Positions 2,508-52,630 of a stretch of 64,000 nt of DNA are shown in pieces; the first letter of the stretch is position 1, and each line of letters opens with the position of its first letter. This stretch comes from an uncultured Actinomycetes bacterium. Its GTDB lineage: Bacteria; Actinomycetota; Actinomycetes; Streptosporangiales; Streptosporangiaceae. The notes beneath the pieces are model-generated. The model was not told where the DNA came from. It worked only from the letters and a program-made list of their open reading frames with translations, and searched no databases. Location: assembly GCA_963822825.1 (NCBI GenBank), contig CAWGIW010000004.1, positions 73,872 through 137,871 on the forward strand, given 5' to 3'. Both the position numbers and the translations under genes were made by a program.

Positions 2508-4751
2508 GTGGTTCACCACGGAAAGGTGGACGTCGTGGCGAGGAGGCTCCCCCGGCGTGCGCCCGCAGCGCTGGCTGCCGGGCTGGCCGTGGCGTGCGTC
2601 GCGCTCACGGCGGCGCCGGCCGTTGCCGACCAGCCCCGCCATGAGGAATGGTGGCTCAGCGCGCTGCACGTGACGACGGCATGGGAATCCAGCAAGGGTT
2701 CTGGTGTCACGGTTGCCGTGCTTGATACCGGTGTCGATTCAACGCAGCCTGACCTGGCCGGCTCGGTGGTCACCGGACCGGACTTCAGCGGGTCCGGGCG
2801 GCAGGCAGGTGCCCCATTCTGGGGTATCGATGGCACGGCGGTCGCGAGCCTGATCGCGGGCCACGGGCACGGCACCCAGGATGGTGACGGCATTACCGGG
2901 GTCGCTCCGGAGGCCAAGATCCTCTCCGTCCGGGTCACCCTGGAGGGCAACGATCCGGATCTGGCCAACGCGGGCATTGTTTCCGGCCTGCCGGGTTCCA
3001 TCGCCAACGGCATCCGCTACGCCGTCAATCATGGCGCCCAGGTCATCGACCTGCCACTGGACCCGGCGGTGCTGGCGATCGGCACCCCGAAAGGCAACGC
3101 GGGCGGCGCCGCCACCTCGGGCGGCCGTCCCCCGGGTGGCAGCCGGACCGAACGCGCGGCGGTGGCCTATGCGCTGAGCAAGAACGTGGTCCTGGTAGCG
3201 CCCGCGGGTGACGGAGGAGCAGGGACCGATCTCATCAACTACCCGGCGGCGTACCCCGGAGTGATCTCGGTGGGCGCCTTCAACCAGAGCTTCACCAAGG
3301 CCCCGTTCACCAGCCACCGGCCCTATGTCACGGTCACCGCGGCCGGGGATGGCGTCGAGGCGGCGACGCCGTCCGGGTATTCAATGCTGCACAGCACCAG
3401 CGCGGCGAGCGCCGTGGTGGCCGGCATCGCCGCACTGATCAGGGCGCAGTTCCCCACGCTGAGCCCCGCCCAGGTGACGAGCGCGCTCACCCAGAGCACC
3501 TCCTTCCGGCGGCCCGGCGGCCAGCAGAACGGATCGGGCTTCGGCACCGTCGACGCCCAGGCCGCCCTGTTGCAGGCGGCCCGGATCAACGCGACCGTCC
3601 CCGCCCGCTCAGGGTCGGGGGGCGCCGTCGTGGCTCCGACGTCCCCGCCCGTCCATGTGCATAGCGCGGGCATCTGGGGAACGCTGCGGTACGCCGCCTT
3701 CGGCCTGGCCGTCCTCCTGGTGCTGGGCCTGCTCGGATTCGTCTTCAACGGCCGCGTCCGGCGGCGGCGCGTTCGGGCCGCCCGGCTCGCACCGCTGCGG
3801 GATGTGCGGCGGACCGCCGTCCGCGCCCAGCCGAATTTCTCGGCCGTGCCCCCGGTCGCCGGACCCCAGTTCGGGACGGCTCAGTTCGGCGGGAACGCGT
3901 TCGCGGACGCCAAGTTCGGTCAGGCCAAGTTCGAGGAGTCCCAGTACGGGCAGAGCCCGTTCCCCGGAGATCAGTACGCGGAAACTCCGTTCCCCGGAGA
4001 CCAGTACACCGAGACCCCGTTCCCCGGGGATCCAGGGGCCGAGGCGCCGTTCCCGGGAGATCCGGTGGCCGAGGCGCCGTTCCCTGGGGGGCCGCTGGCG
4101 CAGACTCCGTTCCCGGAGGATCCAGCGGCTCCGGCGCCGTTCCCGGAGGACTCGTTGGGGGATACGCCGTTCCCCGGCACCCAGGTGTCCGGGACCGGCC
4201 CGTTCCCCGCGATCCAGCCTGGAGGCCCCCCCGACCGCACCGCGGGCAGCCCGCCCCGCGCCATCGCTCCAACTCCCAGGTCGCACGTGGTGCGCTCGCC
4301 ACGGATATCGGGCCATCCGCCCTGGGATCCAGCCCAGAAGCCGGACGGGGAACTCCCGTGGGCCGTCGGCCCCCCGGTCAAGGCGGTCGGACGATCGGCC
4401 GCGGCGCGCCGGGTGATCCCCACCGGTGCCCAGCCCTGGGGCCCGGCTGCCCACAGTGACCGGTCGCCGGATGACCCGGATCTGGGTGGGGCCGACCTGG
4501 ACAGCCCGGGATCGGAAAGCATGTTCCCGGACAACGTGGAACTAGGCAGCCGGGTACCAGGCAGCATGCCGTTGCCCGCCCCGGACTCCGGCCACGGCGG
4601 GTCAGCCGAGGACGCCGACGATGACGCTGAGGAAGGCAGCAGGCTCTACGTGTGGAACCCGGCCGATACGACGAAGCCCTACGCACGGCCTCACGAGGAG
4701 AGTCCGGCCGGAAACCGCCGCCGGGACCGGAATAGCCCCGGACCGGAATAG
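2508..4751 (+). CDS. S8 (subtilase) family, mycosin-like membrane-anchored protein with degenerate active site and long Pro-rich repeat tail
   Basis: Signal-like N-terminus, then AVLDTGVD (Asp box). The His box reads IDGTAVASLIAG (H to D), the oxyanion box reads APAGDGG (N to D), and the Ser box reads HSTSAASAVVAG. A TM helix (FGLAVLLVLGLLGFVF + RRRR) is followed by a ~330-aa tail with PFPGD decapeptide repeats. Confidence 0.8.
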   Translation: MVHHGKVDVVARRLPRRAPAALAAGLAVACVALTAAPAVADQPRHEEWWLSALHVTTAWESSKGSGVTVAVLDTGVDSTQPDLAGSVVTGPDFSGSGRQAGAPFWGIDGTAVASLIAGHGHGTQDGDGITGVAPEAKILSVRVTLEGNDPDLANAGIVSGLPGSIANGIRYAVNHGAQVIDLPLDPAVLAIGTPKGNAGGAATSGGRPPGGSRTERAAVAYALSKNVVLVAPAGDGGAGTDLINYPAAYPGVISVGAFNQSFTKAPFTSHRPYVTVTAAGDGVEAATPSGYSMLHSTSAASAVVAGIAALIRAQFPTLSPAQVTSALTQSTSFRRPGGQQNGSGFGTVDAQAALLQAARINATVPARSGSGGAVVAPTSPPVHVHSAGIWGTLRYAAFGLAVLLVLGLLGFVFNGRVRRRRVRAARLAPLRDVRRTAVRAQPNFSAVPPVAGPQFGTAQFGGNAFADAKFGQAKFEESQYGQSPFPGDQYAETPFPGDQYTETPFPGDPGAEAPFPGDPVAEAPFPGGPLAQTPFPEDPAAPAPFPEDSLGDTPFPGTQVSGTGPFPAIQPGGPPDRTAGSPPRAIAPTPRSHVVRSPRISGHPPWDPAQKPDGELPWAVGPPVKAVGRSAAARRVIPTGAQPWGPAAHSDRSPDDPDLGGADLDSPGSESMFPDNVELGSRVPGSMPLPAPDSGHGGSAEDADDDAEEGSRLYVWNPADTTKPYARPHEESPAGNRRRDRNSPGPE
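3957..4229 (+). repeat. 30-bp in-frame tandem repeat (about 9 copies) encoding PFPGDxxAEx decapeptides
   Basis: ccgttcc recurs at 3957, 3987, 4017, 4047, 4077, 4107, 4137, 4167 and 4200. Confidence 0.9.
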
Positions 4752-16377: not shown

Positions 16378-16405
16378 CCAAATGTTGGCCCTATGGGGTG
16401 ATCGT

Positions 16406-17332
16406 TCAGGCGGGCAGGGGTTCGCCCTTGAATACTTCCCGGGTGTGCCAGGACACATGGACAGCCGCTGGAACGGCCGTGCCGGGTCGCGGCGCCAGCC
16501 CTCGCCCGTGCAGGTCATACACCGCGCGGCCGGCCGGCGTTCGTGCGCTGAAGGCGGCGGACACCTGGACGCGGAGCGTCGCGTCCAGGCCCAGAACGCC
16601 CAGATCGAACAGTTTGTGGTGCAGAACGCACAGGGCCATGCCGTTGTCGAGGGCGTCCGGGCCGTCGAAGGCGAACCACCGCACGTGCGCCGCGTCGATC
16701 CCCATGCTGGCCCCGGCGAGTTGCCCGTCATAGCCGCAGAACGCGCACTGCCGGTCCCATCCGCGCAGTACGGCGGCCCGCCATCCGGGGCTGCGCCGCC
16801 GCTCAGCCAGCGCGGCATCGGGTCCCGGTAGAACGCCGCTGGCACCAAGCACCGCTTCAGGATCCAGGCCGGCCGCCTCCAGGACATCTGCCGCAACCGT
16901 CTCGGGGAAGTTGCTCAGCACCAGTTCCCGGGCGGCCGCGCTGACCAGTTGCGGACTGGCCAGCAGCGCGGACTCGACCGACGCCTCGAACTGGCCGACG
17001 ACGTGCCGCTCGGCGAGAGGCGTGACCAGATCCATCTGCACGTCCTGGTCGAGCACCCAGACCCCGTCCGCGCGCAAGCGGGTAAAGGGATAGGCGGCGC
17101 TCTGCGCCCGGCCGGTTCCCGACGGCGGCCCGAACTCCGCGATCAGGTCGGCCAGGGCCGCCTCGGCCGAGGACCACGGCAGTTCACTAGACCCCGTCGT
17201 GGCCAGACGGCCCAGGGCCAGCAGGACAAGGAGCGGCTTGTGCGGGGATCGCCGCCCACGCTGCCGGTGCTGGCGCAGCGACCCGAGCCGGGCAAGCACA
17301 TCCGCCGCCTCGCTGCCGGTGGGGGAATGCAC
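16406..17332 (-). CDS. HNH endonuclease with N-terminal modified-DNA reader domain; resembles short SBD-HNH (phosphorothioated-DNA-binding) type IV restriction enzymes
   Basis: N-terminal SPHKPLLVLLALGRL and AAYPFTRLRADGVWVL. The C-terminal HNH region is CAFCGYDG...IDAAHVRWFA...DNGMALCVLHHKLFD. Confidence 0.65.
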   Translation of the reverse strand: MHSPTGSEAADVLARLGSLRQHRQRGRRSPHKPLLVLLALGRLATTGSSELPWSSAEAALADLIAEFGPPSGTGRAQSAAYPFTRLRADGVWVLDQDVQMDLVTPLAERHVVGQFEASVESALLASPQLVSAAARELVLSNFPETVAADVLEAAGLDPEAVLGASGVLPGPDAALAERRRSPGWRAAVLRGWDRQCAFCGYDGQLAGASMGIDAAHVRWFAFDGPDALDNGMALCVLHHKLFDLGVLGLDATLRVQVSAAFSARTPAGRAVYDLHGRGLAPRPGTAVPAAVHVSWHTREVFKGEPLPA

Positions 17333-17429
17333 TCACCAAGCCTCCCACCCCCAGCGGGCCGAAGACCGCTAGGGGCAGTTGCCGCCCGTCCAGCGATCCC
17401 AGGGCGACGCCAGACGGCCTACGCGCCGG

Positions 17430-18110
17430 TTAAGCAGGCGGCCGGACCTCCACCAGCGGTGCTCCGCGGTCGGCGAACCAGCGCTGAAGGTCGGCGCCAT
17501 CGAGAAGGTGCGGCGAATCTGTGCCGACATCGATTGGCCCGTCGACCATCCCCTTGGTCTCCTCCACCAGGCCGCCCGCGAGTCGGGCCTCATCAAAGCC
17601 AGTTGAGTAACGGCTCTGGCCAAACGTGCATTGACGCAGATCGGCGCCCCGCAGATCCGCGCCGGTAAGCCGGGCTTGGCCGAACTGGGTCTCACGGAAA
17701 TCGGCTCGCCGGAGATCGGCATCCTCGAACTCGGACCGGTCAAGGTCCGCGCCGCGCAGGAACGCGTCCTGGGCGTCACAGGCGCGTCCTTCAACCTTCC
17801 GCAGGTCGCAGTGGGACAGGTCGGCGCCACGCAGGACCGCCCCGATCAGCCAGGCGTGGTAAAGATCCGCTCCCACGAGACGCACGCCGCTCAGGTTGGC
17901 GTCACTGAGTTCCGCTTCCACAAGGTCGAGACCGGACAGGTCGGCTCCCCTGAAGTCAAGGCCCCCGCCGTTGAGCAAGGACGCAACCGTCCGCGAGTCG
18001 TCGGGCAGTTTCTCGAGGGAGTCGAAGTAGTCTTCGAGCCTCCGGCGCGCGGCCGGGTCGTCGGGCCAGCGGCGCACGTTCTCGCGTGAGCGACCGTGCG
18101 TGATGGTCAT
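17430..18110 (-). CDS. pentapeptide-repeat protein; candidate immunity protein of the upstream toxin
   Basis: Consecutive A(D/N)Lxx pentads run across residues ~55-180 (GADLSGLDLVEAELSDANLSGVRLVGADLYHAWLIGAVLRGADLSHCDL...). The ATG at 18110 overlaps the toxin stop (ATGA). An alternative start lies at 18137. Confidence 0.8.
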   Translation of the reverse strand: MTITHGRSRENVRRWPDDPAARRRLEDYFDSLEKLPDDSRTVASLLNGGGLDFRGADLSGLDLVEAELSDANLSGVRLVGADLYHAWLIGAVLRGADLSHCDLRKVEGRACDAQDAFLRGADLDRSEFEDADLRRADFRETQFGQARLTGADLRGADLRQCTFGQSRYSTGFDEARLAGGLVEETKGMVDGPIDVGTDSPHLLDGADLQRWFADRGAPLVEVRPPA

Positions 18111-19381
18111 GATCCCCACACTACCTTTCCCTGCCATTCGGGATGGTCGGCCACGACCTGCTGCAACTGGGCCAAGCGGCCCGGCGACATCCCGTCGGGA
18201 TCGAGCATGACATTCTCGCCGATCCCCAGCGACTTATTGATCATCGATGTGAAACCTCCGGCAGATTGGGGGTTGCTGATAGGTCGCCCCGCATCGGCCT
18301 TGTAGCTGGGCTGGAAGTCAGGTGAGCTCTTGACGTCCCATCGCTGGCCGACGCCGTCAAAGAATTCACCTTGGTCTTTTCCGAAAGCATCGAGTGGCGC
18401 GCGGCTGATCGGTCCCGGAACCTGGCCGTCGGCCTCCAATTGCAACCCAACCTGCGCCTCCCGCACGGATGCGGGTCTAGATGCCCCACCGTGTGCGGGG
18501 TCTTTCGAGAGTTCCGAAATGCGGGCCTGGTATTCCGGCGTGCCGGGCGTGTACTGCGGGTCGGAGGAGGGTGAAGTACCGCCCGGTCCGCTATCGGCGT
18601 TCACCGGATCGACATGATCGTCACCGGCCGCGTGGCTCGCCAGGTCGCCCGCCGACGCCATCATCAGGCCGCCGCCGGCCACCACCCCGGCCGTAGTGAG
18701 CACGTTGATCGGGACCCCGGCAACGGCGCCCACGCCCGTGGCGTCGAGGACGAAGCCCGCACCGTCGCCGATGGCGCTCACCCCGGCGAGCATGGCGCCC
18801 CCGGCCATTCCGAGGCCGTCGAGCGGATGATTGATCATGGCATTGCCGAGCGAGGCCAGATCGTCGAGCGCGCTGGCGCCGACCTGCTCGGCGTCATGCC
18901 CGAGCCCTTCGAAGAAGTGACCGACGTCCGACCAGAACCCGGGCCTGCGCGGGGCCTGGTCGCGGGCCTGGCCCACGACGGCGTTGGCGGTGCCCGCGGC
19001 GTCGGCCAGCTGACGGCGAGCATTCTCGAGGGTGGACTTCGCGGCGTTCTTGTCGCCCTGATTCCACTGCTGGATCGCGGCGCCCGCCTGCTGCTGCGCC
19101 CACTCCAGCGTCGGAATGTACCGGTCGAGCGCGCTGGCAGCGTCCTGGAAACAGCGGCCCGCGATCAGCCACCGCTCCGGTTCGCCGTGGAAGCGCTGCC
19201 GGAAGGCATCGCCCGCCGCGCCACTCCAGCCGCCGGTGGTATCGATGCGCTTCAGGCCGTTCCCAGCCTCGGTGAGTACGGTGCTGTAGCCGTACATTTT
19301 GCCTGCCACCTGGGCGATCGAGCCCGCATTCCCTGGGACTAAGTTCTGGGGGTCGCTGGTCTCGCCGAGCTGCATCACCAT
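18107..19381 (-). CDS. T7SS-type polymorphic toxin: WxG-containing N-terminal secretion-signal domain, Gly/Ala-rich linker, C-terminal PD-(D/E)xK-like (restriction endonuclease fold) toxin module
   Basis: The N-terminus reads LGETSDPQNLVPGNAGSI...GGWSGAAGDAFRQRF...LDRYIPTLEWAQQQ, and the linker reads GMAGGAMLAGVSAIGDGAGFVLD.... The C-terminus reads REAQVGLQLE...FFDGVGQRWDVKS. The start (19381 or 19375) overlaps the upstream stop. Confidence 0.7.
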   Translation of the reverse strand: MVMQLGETSDPQNLVPGNAGSIAQVAGKMYGYSTVLTEAGNGLKRIDTTGGWSGAAGDAFRQRFHGEPERWLIAGRCFQDAASALDRYIPTLEWAQQQAGAAIQQWNQGDKNAAKSTLENARRQLADAAGTANAVVGQARDQAPRRPGFWSDVGHFFEGLGHDAEQVGASALDDLASLGNAMINHPLDGLGMAGGAMLAGVSAIGDGAGFVLDATGVGAVAGVPINVLTTAGVVAGGGLMMASAGDLASHAAGDDHVDPVNADSGPGGTSPSSDPQYTPGTPEYQARISELSKDPAHGGASRPASVREAQVGLQLEADGQVPGPISRAPLDAFGKDQGEFFDGVGQRWDVKSSPDFQPSYKADAGRPISNPQSAGGFTSMINKSLGIGENVMLDPDGMSPGRLAQLQQVVADHPEWQGKVVWGS

Positions 19382-19707
19382 TTCGAGGCCGCCGGATCGG
19401 TACCAGTGCGGCTCCGCAGGATCCCGCTGAGGTGCGCGATGACCGTCTTTTCGGCCTTCGCATAGGTCGCGGCCGACCGGGTGAGGCGGCTCGCGACCTG
19501 CTTGGCGTCGTTCGTCAGATGCTCGACGCCGATCTCCCACCGACCGCAGAAATCGGACACGGTGCCGGCCAGGGCATCGTCTCCGTAATCCGCCTCCGAA
19601 CTCCCGATGTCGCTGACCTTATTATTCTGAAGATCGCTCATCGCCCCGTTGACGCCCGCCGACGCCTGTACTAAGGCACCGAGGTCCACCTCGAACCCAT
19701 CGGACAT
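19375..19707 (-). CDS. EspC/WXG100-like small helical protein (type VII secretion associated)
   Basis: 110 aa: MSDGFEVDLGALVQASAGVNGAMSDLQNNKVSDI...FCGRWEIGVEHLTNDAKQVASRLTRSAATYAKAEK. A GGGGAGA RBS is present. This is the first gene of the toxin operon. Confidence 0.6.
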   Translation of the reverse strand: MSDGFEVDLGALVQASAGVNGAMSDLQNNKVSDIGSSEADYGDDALAGTVSDFCGRWEIGVEHLTNDAKQVASRLTRSAATYAKAEKTVIAHLSGILRSRTGTDPAASKW

Positions 19708-19828
19708 CTCGTCTCCCCACGTCTATGGACGCCCGTGCGCCAATCGTGCCCGCCCCGAACACCCCCGTGCACGGCAGCCGACACGCCCTTCTACGCTAAC
19801 CAATTGCTCGAAGCCGGACAATTAGTTC

Positions 19829-19950
19829 GGCACACCCCGGCCTTGCCCCCGGCACACCCCGGCCTTGCCCCCGGCGCACACCGGCCTTGCGCGTGCGCTC
19901 ACTTGCCTTGCCCCCGGCGCACACCGGCTTGCCCGGCGCACACCGGCCTA
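19829..19950. repeat. 22-bp tandem repeat (GGCACACCCCGGCCTTGCCCCC x2 perfect plus ~3 degenerate copies) in a divergent intergenic region
   Basis: The perfect copies are at 19829-19850 and 19851-19872. Degenerate ggcgcacaccggc(c)ttgcc units follow. Confidence 0.85.
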
Positions 19951-20097
19951 CCTCGGGCCCCGGCGGTTCACTGCTCCCGATCTGGGATTCAGGCGCCTGC
20001 CCGAAGCGTGAGCGCCGGGCACCCGACCGCGATGAGCTGGACCGGCAAGACGCCCGTTAGGCCGTCAAGATGTCCGGGCTCCTCTACCATCGGGCGC

Positions 20098-21408
20098 ATG
20101 TCGCCTGTGTCCCGTGGCCGCAAGGCTAAGTCCAAGACCAAAACCAAGAAGCGTGCCTCCGGACCCCCCAGCTCGGCCCGCCTCGACCCCAGTGACCTGC
20201 TGGTTAGGGCCAGGCTGTCGGCCTTCGAGGGGACGCAATCTCTGATGGGGCCGCCGGAGCGACCAGGGTGGTTCGATGCGTCGATCAAGAATGTCCTCGA
20301 TCAGGCCGGCGTCGTCATGGCCGCGCACGGGCCGCGGGAACTTGAACAGGCGGCAGCGGAGCTGGTCGGTGCCGAGCTGTACCGCACCGTCCATGACGAG
20401 CGCCACGGGGTGTGGTTCGACTGGCTGTTTGAGGAACTCGCGGACGCCGCGGCGGGCAGGGTCAAAGAAGAAGCCGACCGCCAGGATGAGGCGTGGCAGG
20501 CGCCATGGCGGCTGCTGTACGGTCTGACCTCAATCGGCTCACCCCCGCTGCGGTCTAGCGCGCAGCGCGCCTTGACGGAGGCCCGGAAAGGGCTGCCCGC
20601 CGGTGCGGCGAAGCAGCCGGACTGGCTACGGCTGCTCCCGAAGATCGCCGCGACCGGCCAGGTGTTCGAGATGCACGATGCGTATGGCACCCGCTTCGCG
20701 GTGATCGCGGGCTTCTGCTACCCAGGCGGCACCGACCCGTCGGTGTTCTTGTTCGACATCGACGCTTGCGGGTTCGTCCGCCTGGCCCGCGCCGGTGTGT
20801 TCGACGACGTCGAGCAGGCGGCCACCGCGTGGCGGGCGCAACTGGGCGGGGGCGCCCGCGGCGCCCGCCCCAGCCCGGTAGAGACGGCCGAACGCCTGTA
20901 CTGCCTCGTTCACCTGGATGAGGAGGAAGGCCTTCTCGACGGTTCCGAGCCGCGGGCGGTGATGGACAACTGGTTCCGGGCGAACCGGCGCTCGCAGGAT
21001 CTGGCGGACTCACTTCGCAAACGGGGGATGCCGCTGCCCGAGGCGAAGTCGCTCTACGACGACATCGACACGGTGCCGACCGAGGAGGCGTTCGCTAGCT
21101 GGTACCTGGGGCGGCACGGCCGCCCGCCGGATCTCGATGCGGTCGGTGCCTTGGCCGAAGAATGGCTGGAGGGGGCACTGCCCGGCACCTGGCATGCCGC
21201 GTCGCCGCACCGGGCCCGCTTCCAGCTGAACTTGATCAGCGACTGGATCCCAGGCCGGGTCACCGTGGGCGCCAAGGCGCTATTGCCGGAATGGGTTCGG
21301 TGGAACGGCGAGCAGTCCGGCCTCTCCGGGCCTCTCCTCGACGACGCGGTCGCGGCCGCCAGCGGGGATCCTCAGCCGTCGGGAGATTGCGCTGAAGCCA
21401 TCTCCTGA
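20098..21408 (+). CDS. hypothetical protein (437 aa) with Lys/Arg-rich N-terminus
   Basis: An in-frame ATG at 20098 gives MSPVSRGRKAKSKTKTKKRASGPP.... The body has normal, non-low-complexity composition. Upstream ORF sequence overlaps the tandem repeats and is unlikely to be coding. I recognise no motif. Confidence 0.55.
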   Translation: MSPVSRGRKAKSKTKTKKRASGPPSSARLDPSDLLVRARLSAFEGTQSLMGPPERPGWFDASIKNVLDQAGVVMAAHGPRELEQAAAELVGAELYRTVHDERHGVWFDWLFEELADAAAGRVKEEADRQDEAWQAPWRLLYGLTSIGSPPLRSSAQRALTEARKGLPAGAAKQPDWLRLLPKIAATGQVFEMHDAYGTRFAVIAGFCYPGGTDPSVFLFDIDACGFVRLARAGVFDDVEQAATAWRAQLGGGARGARPSPVETAERLYCLVHLDEEEGLLDGSEPRAVMDNWFRANRRSQDLADSLRKRGMPLPEAKSLYDDIDTVPTEEAFASWYLGRHGRPPDLDAVGALAEEWLEGALPGTWHAASPHRARFQLNLISDWIPGRVTVGAKALLPEWVRWNGEQSGLSGPLLDDAVAAASGDPQPSGDCAEAIS

Positions 21409-21459
21409 TCGGGCCACGAAACCGCCGCGCCGATGCCAGTCGCCGTGCGAATTAGCTGG

Positions 21460-22242
21460 TCATTCCCGGTCAGGCCGCTTCCAAGCAGCTTGGTCCCGGC
21501 GGGGACAGCCCCGGCCCGTCCAAGGGCAGATCTCAGGGTCGTAGTCATGGCCTGAGAGATCGCCCAGGAACTTGGCGTTGTCGCCGAAATCTCTATTGAT
21601 CCAGCGGGCAACCACGAGCACGGAGACGCGTTCCGCTCCCGTCTTATGCAACGAAAGGACGGCCGACCGCGCACGGCCTCCCCCGACCCAGGTGTCATCG
21701 ATGAGCAGTACATGGGAACCCGCCGGTAAGCGGGCATTCGCGCTGAAATGCTGCGGGTTGACGTCCCGGGGGAAGGGGGCTCTGGCCGCCGCCACCAGGG
21801 TGACCTCGGGCCTGATTACTAAGTGGGCGACGATCTCATGGAGGGGGTGCTCTCCTGGCTTGGCCGGCAGCGATGGCACCGTCGCCCAGTGAGTGACGGG
21901 GGCACCGGCGAGCGCACCCGGGCAGCCGACGTGCCTCGACAGCGCGAGAAGGACGAGCAGGGTCACGATGGTGCGGTGCTCAGCCAGAGGTGGCCGCGCC
22001 TTATAGCCGCGCATCACGTAGCCCGACTGCTGGCCCGCGACCGCGTAGGTCAGGAACGCGACGGGACCAGCCAGGTCGCCGCGGCGGCAATGTTCGCATT
22101 GGTAGCAGCGCTCATAGCCAGCGACCGGCGTCGCGCAGACGGCGCACGTCACGCCGCCACGCCGGACCGGATTCCGGAGGTAGCCGCCTGCCCTGGACAC
22201 CAGGGCAGCGCTCAGCCTCGCGATTGCCTCCTGGTCGGGCAT
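21460..22242 (-). CDS. ComF-family phosphoribosyltransferase-like protein (Zn-ribbon + PRTase)
   Basis: 4-Cys ribbon CAVCATPVAGYERCYQCEHC and PRPP loop HVLLIDDTWVGGGRARS. The start lies 2 nt after the DprA-like stop. Confidence 0.75.
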   Translation of the reverse strand: MPDQEAIARLSAALVSRAGGYLRNPVRRGGVTCAVCATPVAGYERCYQCEHCRRGDLAGPVAFLTYAVAGQQSGYVMRGYKARPPLAEHRTIVTLLVLLALSRHVGCPGALAGAPVTHWATVPSLPAKPGEHPLHEIVAHLVIRPEVTLVAAARAPFPRDVNPQHFSANARLPAGSHVLLIDDTWVGGGRARSAVLSLHKTGAERVSVLVVARWINRDFGDNAKFLGDLSGHDYDPEICPWTGRGCPRRDQAAWKRPDRE

Positions 22243-22244
22243 GC

Positions 22245-23192
22245 CTACGCCGACGTCAGGCGACGTAGCTCGGCACCGACGAATTCGCGTTCGGCGATCA
22301 ACTGATCGACGACGTCCAGGACCGAGTGGAGGCCGCTGGCCACGTGAACGCCGGGGCGGCTGACGAGAGCGCGAGCCCAGTCATTGCGCTCCACCACCAG
22401 GTCCGTAAGGATCACCGGCCGGCCGTGCTCGACCGCCAGTCGCGCCTGGACACGGGCGCCGCTGTGCTCGCCCGCCTCGACCACGATGGTGGCCAGTCCG
22501 TACCCGGACATCGTGGCGTTGCGCATCGGGAAGTTGTGCTTCTGGGGCGGCGCGTCCGGCCAGAACTGGGAAAGCAGGAGGCCGCGAGCGGCGATTTCCT
22601 CCTGCAGGTCCCGGTTCTCCGGCGGATAGGACCTGTTGATGCCGGTTCCGATGATGGCGACGGTGCGCCCCCCGGCGGCCAGGGCCGCGCGATGGGCCGC
22701 CGCGTCGATGCCCAGCGCCAGCCCGGCGACCACCGTCACCGCGCGGGCGGCAAGTTCGCGGGCCACACCGCCGGCGATGGCCAGACCCCGGGCCGATGCC
22801 TTCCGTGAACCCACGACGGATACCGCGGAATCCTCCCTCAGGAGGGCTCCGCGGGCGAAGAGGACGGGCGGTGCCTGATGAATCCCGCGGAGCCGGGCCG
22901 GGTAGTCCATGTCGAGGATGGTCACGAGCGTCCAGCCCTGCTGCGCCCAGGCATCAATCTCATGAGCCGCCGCATCGAGGGGGCCGGGCTCGCCCGCAGG
23001 ATTCATCAGCACCGCGGGCACCGTCCGGTGCCAAAGCGCCAGGGCACTCCCGGCCTCGAGGACGTCGGCGGTAATCTCAGCCCAGCGCATACCCGCCGGC
23101 CGCGCCCGGAGAAGAGCGACGAGCGCCGCTTGCTCCCGCCGCGCGCTCGCGTCCATGGTGCCAGAGTACGAGGAAGGCCCCTTCTCCTGCAT
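22245..23192 (-). CDS. DprA/Smf-like (SLOG superfamily) DNA-processing protein homolog
   Basis: VSVVGSRKASARGL, VVAGLALGIDAAAHRAAL, AIIGTGINRSYPPENRDL, LLSQFWPDAPPQKHNFPMRNATMSG. The ATG at 23192 is preceded by GAGGTGG. Confidence 0.8.
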   Translation of the reverse strand: MQEKGPSSYSGTMDASARREQAALVALLRARPAGMRWAEITADVLEAGSALALWHRTVPAVLMNPAGEPGPLDAAAHEIDAWAQQGWTLVTILDMDYPARLRGIHQAPPVLFARGALLREDSAVSVVGSRKASARGLAIAGGVARELAARAVTVVAGLALGIDAAAHRAALAAGGRTVAIIGTGINRSYPPENRDLQEEIAARGLLLSQFWPDAPPQKHNFPMRNATMSGYGLATIVVEAGEHSGARVQARLAVEHGRPVILTDLVVERNDWARALVSRPGVHVASGLHSVLDVVDQLIAEREFVGAELRRLTSA

Positions 23193-23304
23193 GCCACCAC
23201 CTCGAAGCGTCAACACGCACCCCGGCCGAACACACGTCGGCTGAACACGTTGACTGAACACACGTTCGGCCATCTCATCGTAATCCGACCGCAGGAGGAA
23301 CGGG

Positions 23305-24858
23305 ATGAACGGCGCGCAGGCACTGATCCGCACGCTGGCCGGGTGCGGCGTGGAGGTGTGCTTCAGCAACCCGGGTACCTCGGAGATGCACTTCGTCGCG
23401 GCGCTGGACACCGTCCCGCAGATGCGCGGTGTGCTGTGCCTGTTCGAGGGGGTGGCGACCGGTGCGGCGGACGGGTACGGCCGGATGACGGGGCGGCCGG
23501 CCGCGGCGCTGCTGCACCTGGGACCGGGGCTGGCGAATGGCCTGGCCAACCTGCACAACGCGAGGCGGGCCCGCACTCCCCTGCTGGCCGTCATTGGTGA
23601 TCACGCCACGTATCACAAGCGGTTCGACGCACCGCTGGAGTCGGATATCGACGCCCTGACCGGATCGGTCTCGGCCTGGACCCGCCGCCCGGCGCGCAGC
23701 GAGGACCTGGCCGCGGACGCCGCGGAGGCGGTCGCCGCGGCGATGAGACCGCCCGGCGGGATAGCCACCCTCATCCTGCCGGCCGACGTGTCCTGGTCCG
23801 AGGGCGCCGAACCAGCGCCCCCGCTTCCCGTCCGCGCACCCGCACCCGTCCCCGAGGACGTGGTCGGCTCGGCCGCGATGGCGCTGCGCAGCGGCGAGCC
23901 GTCGGTGATCCTGCTCGGCGGGGCCGGGGTGCGGCGCCCCGGCCTGGAGGCCGCCAGCCGGATCGCCCAGGCCACCGGCGCCCGGCTGCTGGGCGAGACC
24001 TTCCCGGCCCGGCTCGAGCGCGGCGCGGGCATCCCGGCCCTCGAACGGCTGGCCTACCTGGCCGAATTCGCGACCCAGCAACTCGCCGGGGCGCGGCACC
24101 TGATCCTGGCCGGTGCCCGCGCACCGGTCTCCTTCTTCGCCTACCCGGGCCAGCCCAGCTTCCTCGTGCCCGCCAACTGCCAGGTCCATGTCCTGGCCGA
24201 GGCGGGAGACGACGTGCCCGGGGCGCTCGCCTTGCTCGCCCACCTCATTGCCTCCAACGACAAGCCGTTGCCGCAACCGCCGCAGCGCCCCGCGCTGCCG
24301 GATGGTGATCTCACCGGGGAGACCGCCGCTGCCGTCATCGGCGCGCTGCTGCCGGAGGGCGCCATCGTCTCCGACGAGGCCAACACGTCCGGGTTCTGGC
24401 TGCCCGGAGCCACCGCGGGCGCGCCCCCGCACGACTGGCTCACCCTGACTGGAGGTGCGATCGGCCAGGGGCTGCCGCTGGCCACGGGGGCCGCCGTCGC
24501 CTGCCCGGAGCGCAGCGTCCTCGCTCTGGAGGCGGACGGCAGCGCCATGTACACCATCTCCGCGCTGTGGACCCACGCGAGGGAGCAACTGGACATCACC
24601 ACGATCATCTTCAGCAACCGCTCCTACGCCATCCTCAGCATGGAGTTGGCGCGGGTCGGCGCGGCAGCGACCGGGGAGGCGGCCCGCAGCCTGCTCGACC
24701 TGTCCCGGCCCACCCTCGACTTCACCGCCCTGGCCAGCGGCATGGGTGTCCCAGCCAGCCGGGCCGCCGTGGCCGCGGAATTCGCCACGCAACTGCGGCG
24801 GGCGCTCACGGAGCCCGGGCCACACCTGATCGAGGCCGTCCTGGCTCCGTCCGCATAG
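23305..24858 (+). CDS. thiamine diphosphate-dependent enzyme (acetolactate synthase large subunit-like)
   Basis: MNGAQALIRTLAGCGVEVCFSNPGTSEMHFVAAL...GYGRMTGRPAAALLHLGPGLANGLANLHNA; C-terminal GAIGQGLP...EADGSAMYT...IFSN. Confidence 0.85.
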   Translation: MNGAQALIRTLAGCGVEVCFSNPGTSEMHFVAALDTVPQMRGVLCLFEGVATGAADGYGRMTGRPAAALLHLGPGLANGLANLHNARRARTPLLAVIGDHATYHKRFDAPLESDIDALTGSVSAWTRRPARSEDLAADAAEAVAAAMRPPGGIATLILPADVSWSEGAEPAPPLPVRAPAPVPEDVVGSAAMALRSGEPSVILLGGAGVRRPGLEAASRIAQATGARLLGETFPARLERGAGIPALERLAYLAEFATQQLAGARHLILAGARAPVSFFAYPGQPSFLVPANCQVHVLAEAGDDVPGALALLAHLIASNDKPLPQPPQRPALPDGDLTGETAAAVIGALLPEGAIVSDEANTSGFWLPGATAGAPPHDWLTLTGGAIGQGLPLATGAAVACPERSVLALEADGSAMYTISALWTHAREQLDITTIIFSNRSYAILSMELARVGAAATGEAARSLLDLSRPTLDFTALASGMGVPASRAAVAAEFATQLRRALTEPGPHLIEAVLAPSA

Positions 24859-41961: not shown

Positions 41962-42093
41962 GACATCTCCCTCGACACTCGAATTTTAATGCGAACCAGA
42001 TGGCCCAGAACTGCTATGTTTTAAAGTTGTAACTTTGCCGGTCTTTGCCCAGGCCCGGCCCAGAATCAGCCCGATCAGAGGACCTAGACGCTC

Positions 42094-52147: not shown

Positions 52148-52630
52148 TCAGGAGGCGAGGATCTCGTCAAGCAGCGCCTCAGCCTTGTCCTCGTTGGTCT
52201 TCTCGGCCAGCGCCAGCTCGCTGACGAGGATCTGCCGCGCCTTGGCCAGCATCCGCTTCTCGCCAGCGGACAGGCCGCGCTCTCGGTCCCGGCGCCACAG
52301 GTCGCGGACGACCTCAGCCACCTTGTTCACGTCACCAGAGGCCAGCTTCTCGAGGTTGGCTTTGTACCGGCGCGACCAGTTGGTCGGCTCCTCGGTGTGC
52401 GGGGCACGAAGCACCTCGAACACACGCTCAAGCCCTTCCTGACCAACGACGTCCCGGACACCGACCAGCTCGGCATTGTCCGCGGGAACGCGTACAGTCA
52501 GGTCACCCTTGTCAACCTTGAGGACCAGATAGGTCTTATCCTGGCCCTTGATCGAACGGGTCTCGATCTCTTCGATGCGAGCAGCCCCATGGTGGGGGTA
52601 GACGACGGTGTCGCCGACCTTGAAAGTCAT
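52148..52630 (-). CDS. carD: CarD-family RNA polymerase-binding transcriptional regulator
   Basis: [39 protein letters not shown]... over 160 aa. A GGAAGGGG lies 10 nt upstream of the ATG at 52630. Confidence 0.95.

Follow-up and report, generated by a model that had tools for sequence, protein, structure and literature searches.

A DprA-like and zinc-ribbon phosphoribosyltransferase gene pair in actinobacteria, with DNA-damage promoter motifs upstream of the operon

We analyzed two adjacent genes from a 64,000-nucleotide stretch of contig CAWGIW010000004.1 of an uncultured Streptosporangiaceae bacterium (this whole stretch is referred to as the window). The genes encode a DprA-like protein and a zinc-ribbon, ComF-like phosphoribosyltransferase (PRTase). 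They make up a single operon with the behavior of an autonomous module that moves horizontally, and DNA-damage promoter motifs are enriched upstream of this operon. The latter observation is new: in the literature searched, no paper ties DprA to PafBC or pairs of DprA and PRTase to LexA. The best reading of the pair, to which we give an even chance, is a module inducible by DNA damage or single-stranded DNA (ssDNA), in which an effector is held by an antagonist as in the ShosTA and PsyrTA systems. Pairs of a DprA-like protein and a PRTase are a known kind of anti-phage toxin-antitoxin system, with studied examples from Proteobacteria and Bacillus only. The pair from the P2 hotspot that an earlier note on this DNA had described as anti-phage is ShosTA (PMC9122126; preprint 10.1101/2022.05.11.491447); the statement of that note that its mechanism is unknown is outdated (PMC11961720, PMC12961424).

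The two genes are located on the minus strand and the gap between them is 2 nt, as noted earlier; the junction reads TAG-GC-ATG, the DprA-like gene being the first. The features of the pair in the window are as follows.

22245..23192, minus strand: DprA-like gene, 315 aa plus stop (ATG at 23192, TAG at 22247-22245)
22386-22946, minus strand: codons of the DprA Rossmann/SLOG domain, residues 83-269 of the DprA-like protein
21460..22242, minus strand: gene of the Zn-ribbon ComF-like PRTase, 260 aa plus stop (ATG at 22242, stop at 21460)
22096..22146, minus strand: codons of the four-cysteine zinc ribbon (C33, C36, C46, C49), N-terminal in the PRTase, invariant or nearly so in alignments A1, A2 and A5
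21664..21711, minus strand: codons of the phosphoribosyl pyrophosphate (PRPP)-binding loop VLLIDDTWVGGGRARS, residues 178-193 of the PRTase; D183, W185 and G188 are invariant and the acidic pair D/E182-D183 is kept
21505..21528, minus strand: codons of the CPWTGxxCP motif (C239, C246), C-terminal in the PRTase, conserved in A1 and A2

The start codon at 23192 is preceded by a GAGGTGG ribosome-binding site and yields a protein of 315 aa rather than the 316 aa given before. The maximal open reading frame (ORF), which extends to 23594 and would encode 449 aa, is an artefact, since the extension is non-coding by codon statistics and overlaps the divergent thiamine pyrophosphate (TPP)-enzyme gene (23305-24858), and the alignments with homologues begin at residue 1 of the protein started at 23192. 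The earlier description of the second gene product, a 260-aa PRTase with a four-cysteine ribbon and a PRPP loop, agrees with the residues listed above.

Conservation and mobility of the pair

A genome scan with the PRTase yielded 80 loci from Streptosporangiales, Mycobacteriales, Pseudonocardiales, Streptomyces, Arthrobacter, Cellulomonas and others (individual loci are cited by their L numbers). In 71 of them the PRTase gene is immediately preceded by a co-directional DprA-like gene; contig ends truncate two of the other nine, so that the fraction is 71 of 78 assessable loci. In 56 of the 70 measured cases, the genes overlap by at most 8 nt or have a gap of no more than 9 nt. When all neighboring ORFs were clustered, the DprA-like and PRTase clusters alone were common across the loci. 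The flanks of the pair are unique in most genera, and one lineage of metagenome-assembled genomes (MAGs) is syntenic: the closest relative of the window (L001) shares with it the divergent TPP-enzyme gene (88% identity). One Mycolicibacterium contig holds two PRTase loci, with the DprA-like gene in L063 and the PRTase only in L066. Broken ORFs of the DprA-like protein or the PRTase, seen in several loci, were not used as a signature of toxin-antitoxin decay, because many of the assemblies look like long-read MAGs, in which a frameshift may stem from a sequencing error.

The PRTase family is abundant in Actinomycetota, with hundreds to more than 1000 proteins from soil metagenomes, Actinomadura, Mycobacterium (including M. 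abscessus), Rhodococcus and Streptomyces plasmids, and Gordonia phages. At least 612 homologues were found by the single-sequence search, and 865 by the profile of divergent members; the named homologues from these searches all belong to Actinomycetota.

The pair is carried on plasmids of Mycobacterium, Rhodococcus and Pseudonocardia, and more distant plasmid PRTases (Streptomyces, Mycobacterium, Rhodococcus) are likewise preceded by a DprA-like gene. On at least two inspected Streptomyces linear plasmids the DprA-like gene is followed by a canonical-looking ComF; about 25 Streptomyces plasmid records have a DprA-like match. On the Streptomyces liliifuscus plasmid (L098, 3264-7669), the DprA-like gene and a canonical ComF-like PRTase gene are followed by genes of an M48 metalloprotease and a nucleotidyltransferase (NTase)-domain protein and by a plasmid-borne lexA. 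On an M. intracellulare plasmid (L083), the pair likewise adjoins a gene with an NTase domain.

The pair is also present in the lysogeny regions of two temperate Gordonia phages that are unrelated to each other, near the integrase in Vasanti (gp30 and gp29) and between the repressor and the integrase in Bosnia (gp41 and gp40). The identity of the phage proteins to those of the window is 54-56% for the DprA-like protein and 39-41% for the PRTase. These are the only two of 50,697 phage records with the PRTase, and three scans of IMG/VR, with the family profile and both phage PRTases, gave no match.

Solo PRTase genes are placed after TrwC relaxases (two), after an SbcD-SbcC-NurA-like operon (two) and after an ECF sigma factor (one). 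The former two (L053, 707-3846, with an overlap of 4 nt, and L066, 4593-9071) are directly downstream of TrwC-type relaxase/helicase genes, a location that points to conjugative elements as carriers; in L066 the PRTase is longer, 356 aa. The operon of SbcD-like, SbcC-like (AAA_23/SMC_N) and NurA-like genes is immediately upstream of the PRTase in L028 (2130-8774) and L040 (3047-8741), both without a DprA-like gene, and occurs upstream in L005 and L013 as well, where the DprA-like gene is present.

Restriction and other defence genes are found in the company of the pair. In M. abscessus contigs it is located between a type III-like methylase/helicase restriction-modification pair and an ESX-type toxin cassette, and in Mycolicibacterium it comes after an MmeI-type enzyme. 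We surveyed with PADLOC 142 non-redundant proteins encoded by the two genes on either side of the pair in 59 loci. Among them were DISARM DrmA and DrmB, MADS, LmuB (Lamassu), AriA, Dodola and components of type I, II and IV restriction systems. In the loci that we looked at, the pair was not accompanied by genes of the competence machinery.

DNA-damage promoter motifs upstream of the operon

The consensus of the actinobacterial LexA SOS box is TCGAAC-N4-GTTCGA (the M. tuberculosis SOS box). Boxes with at most two mismatches were searched for within 160 nt upstream of the DprA-like gene in 65 assessable loci. They were found in 21 loci, against 0.64 expected from background, and six of them, including those of L034, L037 and L039, are perfect. 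All 21 boxes are located at −26 to −75, most of them at −26 to −54. Promoters of the PafBC type, with the motif tGTCgg-N10-tA-N3-T (PMC8635444), were found in 17 of the 65 loci, compared to 2.05 expected; the motif of L065 is perfect. The PafBC-type −10 element abuts or overlaps the SOS box in L001, L005, L025, L030, L034, L045 and L050, a geometry that would be expected for activation by ssDNA-bound PafBC combined with repression by LexA. Good PafBC-type motifs are also present in the PRTase-only loci L015 and L028. From the motifs we infer that LexA or PafBC would bind upstream of the operon, and this link makes a testable prediction, namely, induction of the module by ssDNA or DNA damage.

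Both Gordonia phages have such motifs upstream of the pair: an SOS box with one mismatch at −43 in Vasanti and a TGTCGTAG-N8-AACAAT element in Bosnia. In Burkholderia phage Mana (L086, about 2703-2718), a proteobacterial LexA box, CTGTATGCATAAACAG, is located approximately 90 nt upstream of a ShosTA-type pair of DprA and PRTase genes. Judging from this single case, SOS control of such pairs may extend beyond Actinomycetota.

The promoter region of the window contains the following elements.

23193..23304, no strand: divergent intergenic region between the DprA-like gene and the TPP-enzyme gene, holding the SOS-box and PafBC-type elements and three tandem repeats
23254..23269, minus strand: degenerate LexA SOS box CCGAACGTGTGTTCAG, 62-77 nt upstream of the DprA-like start, homologous in position to good boxes of related loci
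23269..23290, minus strand: remnant of a PafBC-type promoter, GGTCGG-N10-GATGGC, aligning with TGTCGA-N10-GATAAT of L001

The sequence CGAAC-N4-GTTC occurs once in the window, in the SOS box at 23254..23269. A functional PafBC-type promoter in the window is not claimed: its function is doubtful, as the final T of the −10 element is missing and the position weight matrix (PWM) score is 4.2 bits. The tandem repeats, three copies of ACGTGT(GT)TC(A/G)G at 23231-23268, look like a duplicated right half of the SOS box. Two other sites of the window have higher PWM scores than the SOS box upstream of the DprA-like gene, TCGAACACACGCTCAA at 52416-52431 (17.0 bits) and TCGAATTTTAATGCGA at 41979-41994 (15.9 bits). 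The latter is located in a divergent intergenic region beside a gene for a hydrolase of the metallo-beta-lactamase fold.

Given the plasmids, the PRTase genes directly after TrwC relaxase genes, the two temperate phages with DNA-damage motifs and the Streptomyces plasmid with its own lexA near the pair, the module could serve the mobile element itself. In that case it would help incoming plasmid or phage DNA to survive or become established, or act against the defences of the host, being expressed at SOS or prophage induction. However, most copies are chromosomal, and in one lineage, to which the window and L001 belong, the pair has stayed next to a metabolic gene at a syntenic site. Moreover, the PRTase is nearly absent from phage records and yielded nothing in IMG/VR. 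To our knowledge, no anti-defence protein has the architecture of a DprA-like protein with a PRTase. We regard a function of this kind as improbable.

Protein features, possible function and genomic neighbors

The DprA-like protein consists of an N-terminal region of approximately 80 aa, the DprA Rossmann/SLOG domain (PF02481 DNA_processg_A in Pfam, residues 83-269, 7.7e-60) and a short C-terminal helix region. It has no C-terminal winged helix, unlike E. coli Smf, and the Pfam scan gave no match to PF17782. The arginines R130, R224 and R251, which correspond to R139, R234 and R261 of ShosA (PMC12961424), for which ssDNA binding is predicted, are invariant in alignment A3. The score of the protein with the dprA equivalog TIGR00732 is 169.8 bits, below the cutoff of 191.15. 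In a search of 1.84 billion representatives, the best 150 matches were all short DprA-like proteins, most of them about 280-340 aa.

The PRTase of the window passes no curated Pfam or NCBIfam threshold and thus goes unannotated by Pfam; the Pribosyltran match (E = 0.0075) is under the gathering score, and no comF match was obtained in NCBIfam at E <= 0.1. Weak matches to comF (TIGR00201) were observed for 19 of 28 family members and to GntX for 14 of 28, with the best E-value of 7.7e-6. The positions conserved in the alignments are the ribbon cysteines, Y80-K81, H104, C107, P123-S124, R159, D183, W185, G188-G189, S193, R213, C239 and C246. D183 is invariant in 124 sequences, and position 182 is occupied by D or E. 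The conservation of H104, C107, C239 and C246 suggests a putative second metal site.

A first AlphaFold model of the PRTase, based on a shallow alignment (mean predicted local distance difference test score, pLDDT, of 66.6), was replaced by a model from a deep alignment with pLDDT 94.2 and a predicted template modeling score (pTM) of 0.91. Foldseek with the latter model found no close relative in PDB or BFVD. The weak matches were yeast APRT (1.4e-4), H. pylori ComF (1.8e-4) and ShosT (9.4e-4), of which H. pylori ComF (7p0h) is the longest and the best over the whole length (TMq 0.39). A sequence search of PDB with the PRTase or its profile gave only PRPP-loop matches to generic PRTases and did not recover ShosT. 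The family profile scored 16.2 bits with E. coli YhgH/ComF, 12.2 with P2 ShosT and 5.9 with the phage Mana PRTase, in all cases around the PRPP loop only, which is the sole stretch aligning with ShosT, PsyrT, ComF and generic PRTases. We conclude that the PRTase of the window belongs to a distinct ComF-like family without a close solved structure.

A plain housekeeping dprA and comF, or a remnant of competence or DNA uptake as the earlier note had offered for an alternative, would share with the pair the Pfam DprA domain, the ComF-like PRTase and the similar scores of E. coli Smf and YhgH on the same hidden Markov models (HMMs). However, the equivalog score is under the cutoff, the PRTase of the window has no comF match, and the context varies, with plasmid and phage carriage, two PRTase loci on one contig and only the two genes conserved across loci. 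Further, both genes are intact, and their tight coupling is preserved in more than 70 loci; this speaks against decay. Hence, we consider this explanation very improbable, whereas the claim of the note that the pair is non-housekeeping is supported by the equivalog score, the lack of the winged helix, the unrelated flanks and the mobile carriage.

According to the reading that we prefer, the promoter would normally be blocked by LexA and, in many relatives, would also need ssDNA-activated PafBC; we propose that such a combination switches the module on upon DNA damage or upon the appearance of ssDNA from phage or plasmid activity. The PRTase would be the effector. It would bind PRPP via the retained acidic-pair loop and transfer or consume phosphoribose, the acceptor of which may be a nucleobase, a nucleotide or DNA, and its activity would be harmful to DNA replication. 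The DprA-like protein would bind ssDNA, probably engage RecA and counteract the effector. The toxicity of the PRTase and the antagonism of the DprA-like protein are suggested by analogy with the studied pairs; an anti-phage activity of the pair is likewise something that we infer.

Several points weigh against this reading. The actinobacterial family is known here from sequences and predicted structure alone. The PRTase has no adjacent DprA-like gene in L015, L028, L040, L042, L053 and L066, which is awkward for a strict toxin. It shares the PRPP loop alone with ShosT and PsyrT, and ComF is at least as similar. The matches to defence HMMs were rejected as evidence, given that the window proteins score no better than the housekeeping controls. 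Control by LexA and PafBC is typical of DNA-repair genes. In the window itself, the core of the SOS box is intact, but the box has three mismatches and a PWM score of 14.5 bits against the training minimum of 17.9, and the PafBC-like element is defective at −10. These weak scores mean that the regulation in the genome of the window may be weakened. Finally, the neighbors of the pair in the window are mostly ordinary accessory genes, the HNH endonuclease (16406-17332) alone being defence-related.

Some of the same observations fit a non-toxic, DNA-damage-inducible pair for ssDNA processing or mediation of recombination, that is, an accessory version of ComFC-DprA in which the ComF-like protein passes ssDNA to the RecA-loading DprA-like protein, thus aiding repair or recombination of the host or the element. 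This explanation is the main rival of the preferred reading, and we consider it less probable. The order of the domains in the PRTase, a Zn ribbon followed by the PRTase domain, is ComF-like, there are weak comF and GntX matches, the best whole-length fold match is H. pylori ComF, and Streptomyces plasmids pair the DprA-like gene with a canonical-looking ComF. The LexA/PafBC promoters, the recurrence of the PRTase beside SbcD-SbcC-NurA-like operons and TrwC relaxases, the intact ssDNA-binding arginines and the tolerance of solo PRTase genes point in the same direction. On the other hand, a repair function does not agree well with the patchy mobile distribution, two PRTase loci on one contig, restriction-modification and defence neighbors and location in prophage lysogeny modules, or with the lack of competence-machinery genes beside the pair; besides, the known non-competence pairs of DprA-like proteins and PRTases are toxic (PMC4670107, PMC11961720). 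The effector-antagonist and repair readings are not mutually exclusive.

More speculatively, the pair may represent an unrecognised branch of the actinobacterial DNA-damage response under dual control of LexA and PafBC. The PRTase would act on DNA or nucleotides, for instance by phosphoribosylating bases or ssDNA ends, and DprA with RecA would process the product. Competence ComFC-DprA, ShosTA, PsyrTA/RqlHI and the family of the window would then be versions of one ancestral pathway, in which a PRTase acts on ssDNA and DprA resolves the outcome, repeatedly borrowed by mobile elements for defence. We consider this scenario rather unlikely.

The neighbors of the pair in the window are the following.

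16406-17332, minus strand: intact phosphorothioate-DNA-dependent HNH restriction endonuclease of the SprMcrA type (NF045808, 250 bits; Pfam HNH_2)
17430-19707, minus strand: polymorphic toxin cassette of a WXG-like 110-aa protein, a 477-aa T7SS_signal toxin and a pentapeptide-repeat protein, which is probably the immunity factor
19735-21408, plus strand: ORF convergent with the PRTase gene, with a probable start near 20098 and no match in Pfam, PADLOC or NCBIfam

The endonuclease implies that the host does not phosphorothioate its own DNA. A comparable cassette, an EspC-like protein and a 448-aa protein, follows the pair in M. abscessus (L092, 9106-11288), its toxins not being detectably homologous to those of the window. 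Intact homologues of the 19735-21408 protein with 61-66% identity are encoded near the pair in L011 (8701-10179) and L004 (about 2596-3744), in differing orientations; the protein is thus a recurrent uncharacterised neighbor and not an evident pseudogene. Therefore, of the defence-like neighborhood described in the earlier note, the HNH enzyme and the toxin cassette stand; the "decayed" winged helix-turn-helix NTase gene does not, having no family match and intact homologues, and most neighbors are ordinary. The third-position GC content is 0.76-0.83 for the genes in 16400-22250 and 0.84-0.93 in the flanking genes, which fits an acquired segment.

Comparison with known systems

The experimentally studied non-competence pairs of a DprA-like protein and a PRTase are all toxin-antitoxin and/or defence systems (PMC11961720, PMC12961424, PMC4670107, PMC9122126). 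In ShosTA and PsyrTA/RqlHI, a DprA-like antitoxin is combined with a toxin containing a PRTase domain (preprint 10.1101/2022.05.11.491447; PMC9122126). In ShosT (424 aa), a pyrophosphatase-like domain is fused to a PRTase, whose PRPP pocket is required for toxicity; ShosA binds ssDNA and RecA, but not ShosT (PMC11961720, PMC12961424). In RqlHI, genotoxicity resides in the PRTase domain, whose PRPP pocket is responsible for it and for SOS induction; this domain must be present for RqlI to co-immunoprecipitate with RqlH (PMC4670107).

The earlier note had proposed a check with defence HMMs. Matches were indeed obtained, but they do not discriminate the window proteins from E. coli Smf and YhgH, as follows from the scores below, where the proteins of P2_4C9 and Mana represent true members.

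ShosA model PDLC03961: window DprA-like protein 198 bits, E. coli Smf 195, P2_4C9 ShosA 284, Mana DprA 323
ShosA model PDLC02997: window DprA-like protein 79.6 bits, E. coli Smf 73, P2_4C9 ShosA 765, Mana DprA 74.1
ShosT model PDLC03962: window PRTase 12.9 bits (E = 0.018), E. coli YhgH 27, P2_4C9 ShosT 180, Mana PRTase 141
ShosT model PDLC03012: P2_4C9 ShosT 973 bits
PsyrT model PDLC03928: E. coli YhgH (ComF) 33.5 bits

With the ShosT models, members of the PRTase family reach at most about 30 bits, over the PRPP loop only, whereas true ShosT proteins score 141-973. The PsyrA model is not specific either (106 bits for the window DprA-like protein vs 92 for E. coli Smf). Since the scores of Smf and YhgH are close to or above those of the window proteins, these matches are not evidence of a defence function. 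As the defence HMMs do not separate the family from housekeeping DprA and ComF, censuses of defence systems probably miss it or, on the DprA-like side, risk over-calling housekeeping genes.

The pair resembles ShosTA in several respects. The DprA-like gene comes first and the co-directional PRTase gene second, with a gap of 1 nt in phage P2_4C9 and 2 nt in the window; ShosA also lacks the winged helix and has the same three ssDNA-binding arginines. Residues D182-D183 of the PRTase are equivalent to the acidic pair D331/D332 of ShosT, essential for its toxicity, and both families occur in temperate phages and defence islands. In contrast to ShosT, the PRTase of the window has 260 aa, an N-terminal four-cysteine ribbon and a C-terminal cysteine pair, and no pyrophosphatase-like domain; the similarity of the PRTases is limited to approximately 35-70 residues around the PRPP loop. 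On these grounds, orthology of the PRTase to ShosT was ruled out. The LexA and PafBC motifs are a feature of the actinobacterial loci, whereas P2_4C9 has no LexA box within 147 nt.

The gp51-gp52 pair of Mana, a P2-like Burkholderia phage, is of a short ShosT type. Here a DprA-like gene and a small overlapping PRTase gene adjoin the integrase, with the LexA box upstream, as in the family of the window; however, the Mana PRTase is 225 aa long, lacks the Zn ribbon and has the canonical DDVLTTG loop.

With PsyrTA/RqlHI the window pair shares a DprA-like partner of a ComF-like PRTase, and a weak match to the PsyrT model, confined to its C-terminal PRTase part (positions ~574-685 of 689), was seen for 16 of 28 family members. 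The PRTase of the window has no N-terminal RecQ-like helicase domain, and the gene order is reversed: rqlH is upstream of rqlI (PMC4670107), whereas in the window the DprA-like gene is upstream. Membership of the pair in ShosTA or PsyrTA is not established; what they have in common is the architecture of the pair, the gene order of the P2_4C9 type and the ligand-binding residues.

Like ComFC/ComF (GntX/YhgH), the PRTase of the window has a Cys4 Zn finger followed by a type I PRTase domain, and a functional partnership with DprA would be common to both. They differ in the PRPP loop, which is DDTWxxGG(H/R)AQS in the family of the window (DDTWVGGGRARS in the window itself) and DDVxTTGxT in ComF (canonical DDxxTTGxT), and in the extra conserved H/C/C/C set. 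In addition, the genes of the family are joined as one mobile operon, with competence genes not nearby. The ComF-like PRTase ties the defence toxin-antitoxin systems to the unexplained role of the PRTase domain of ComFC in natural transformation.

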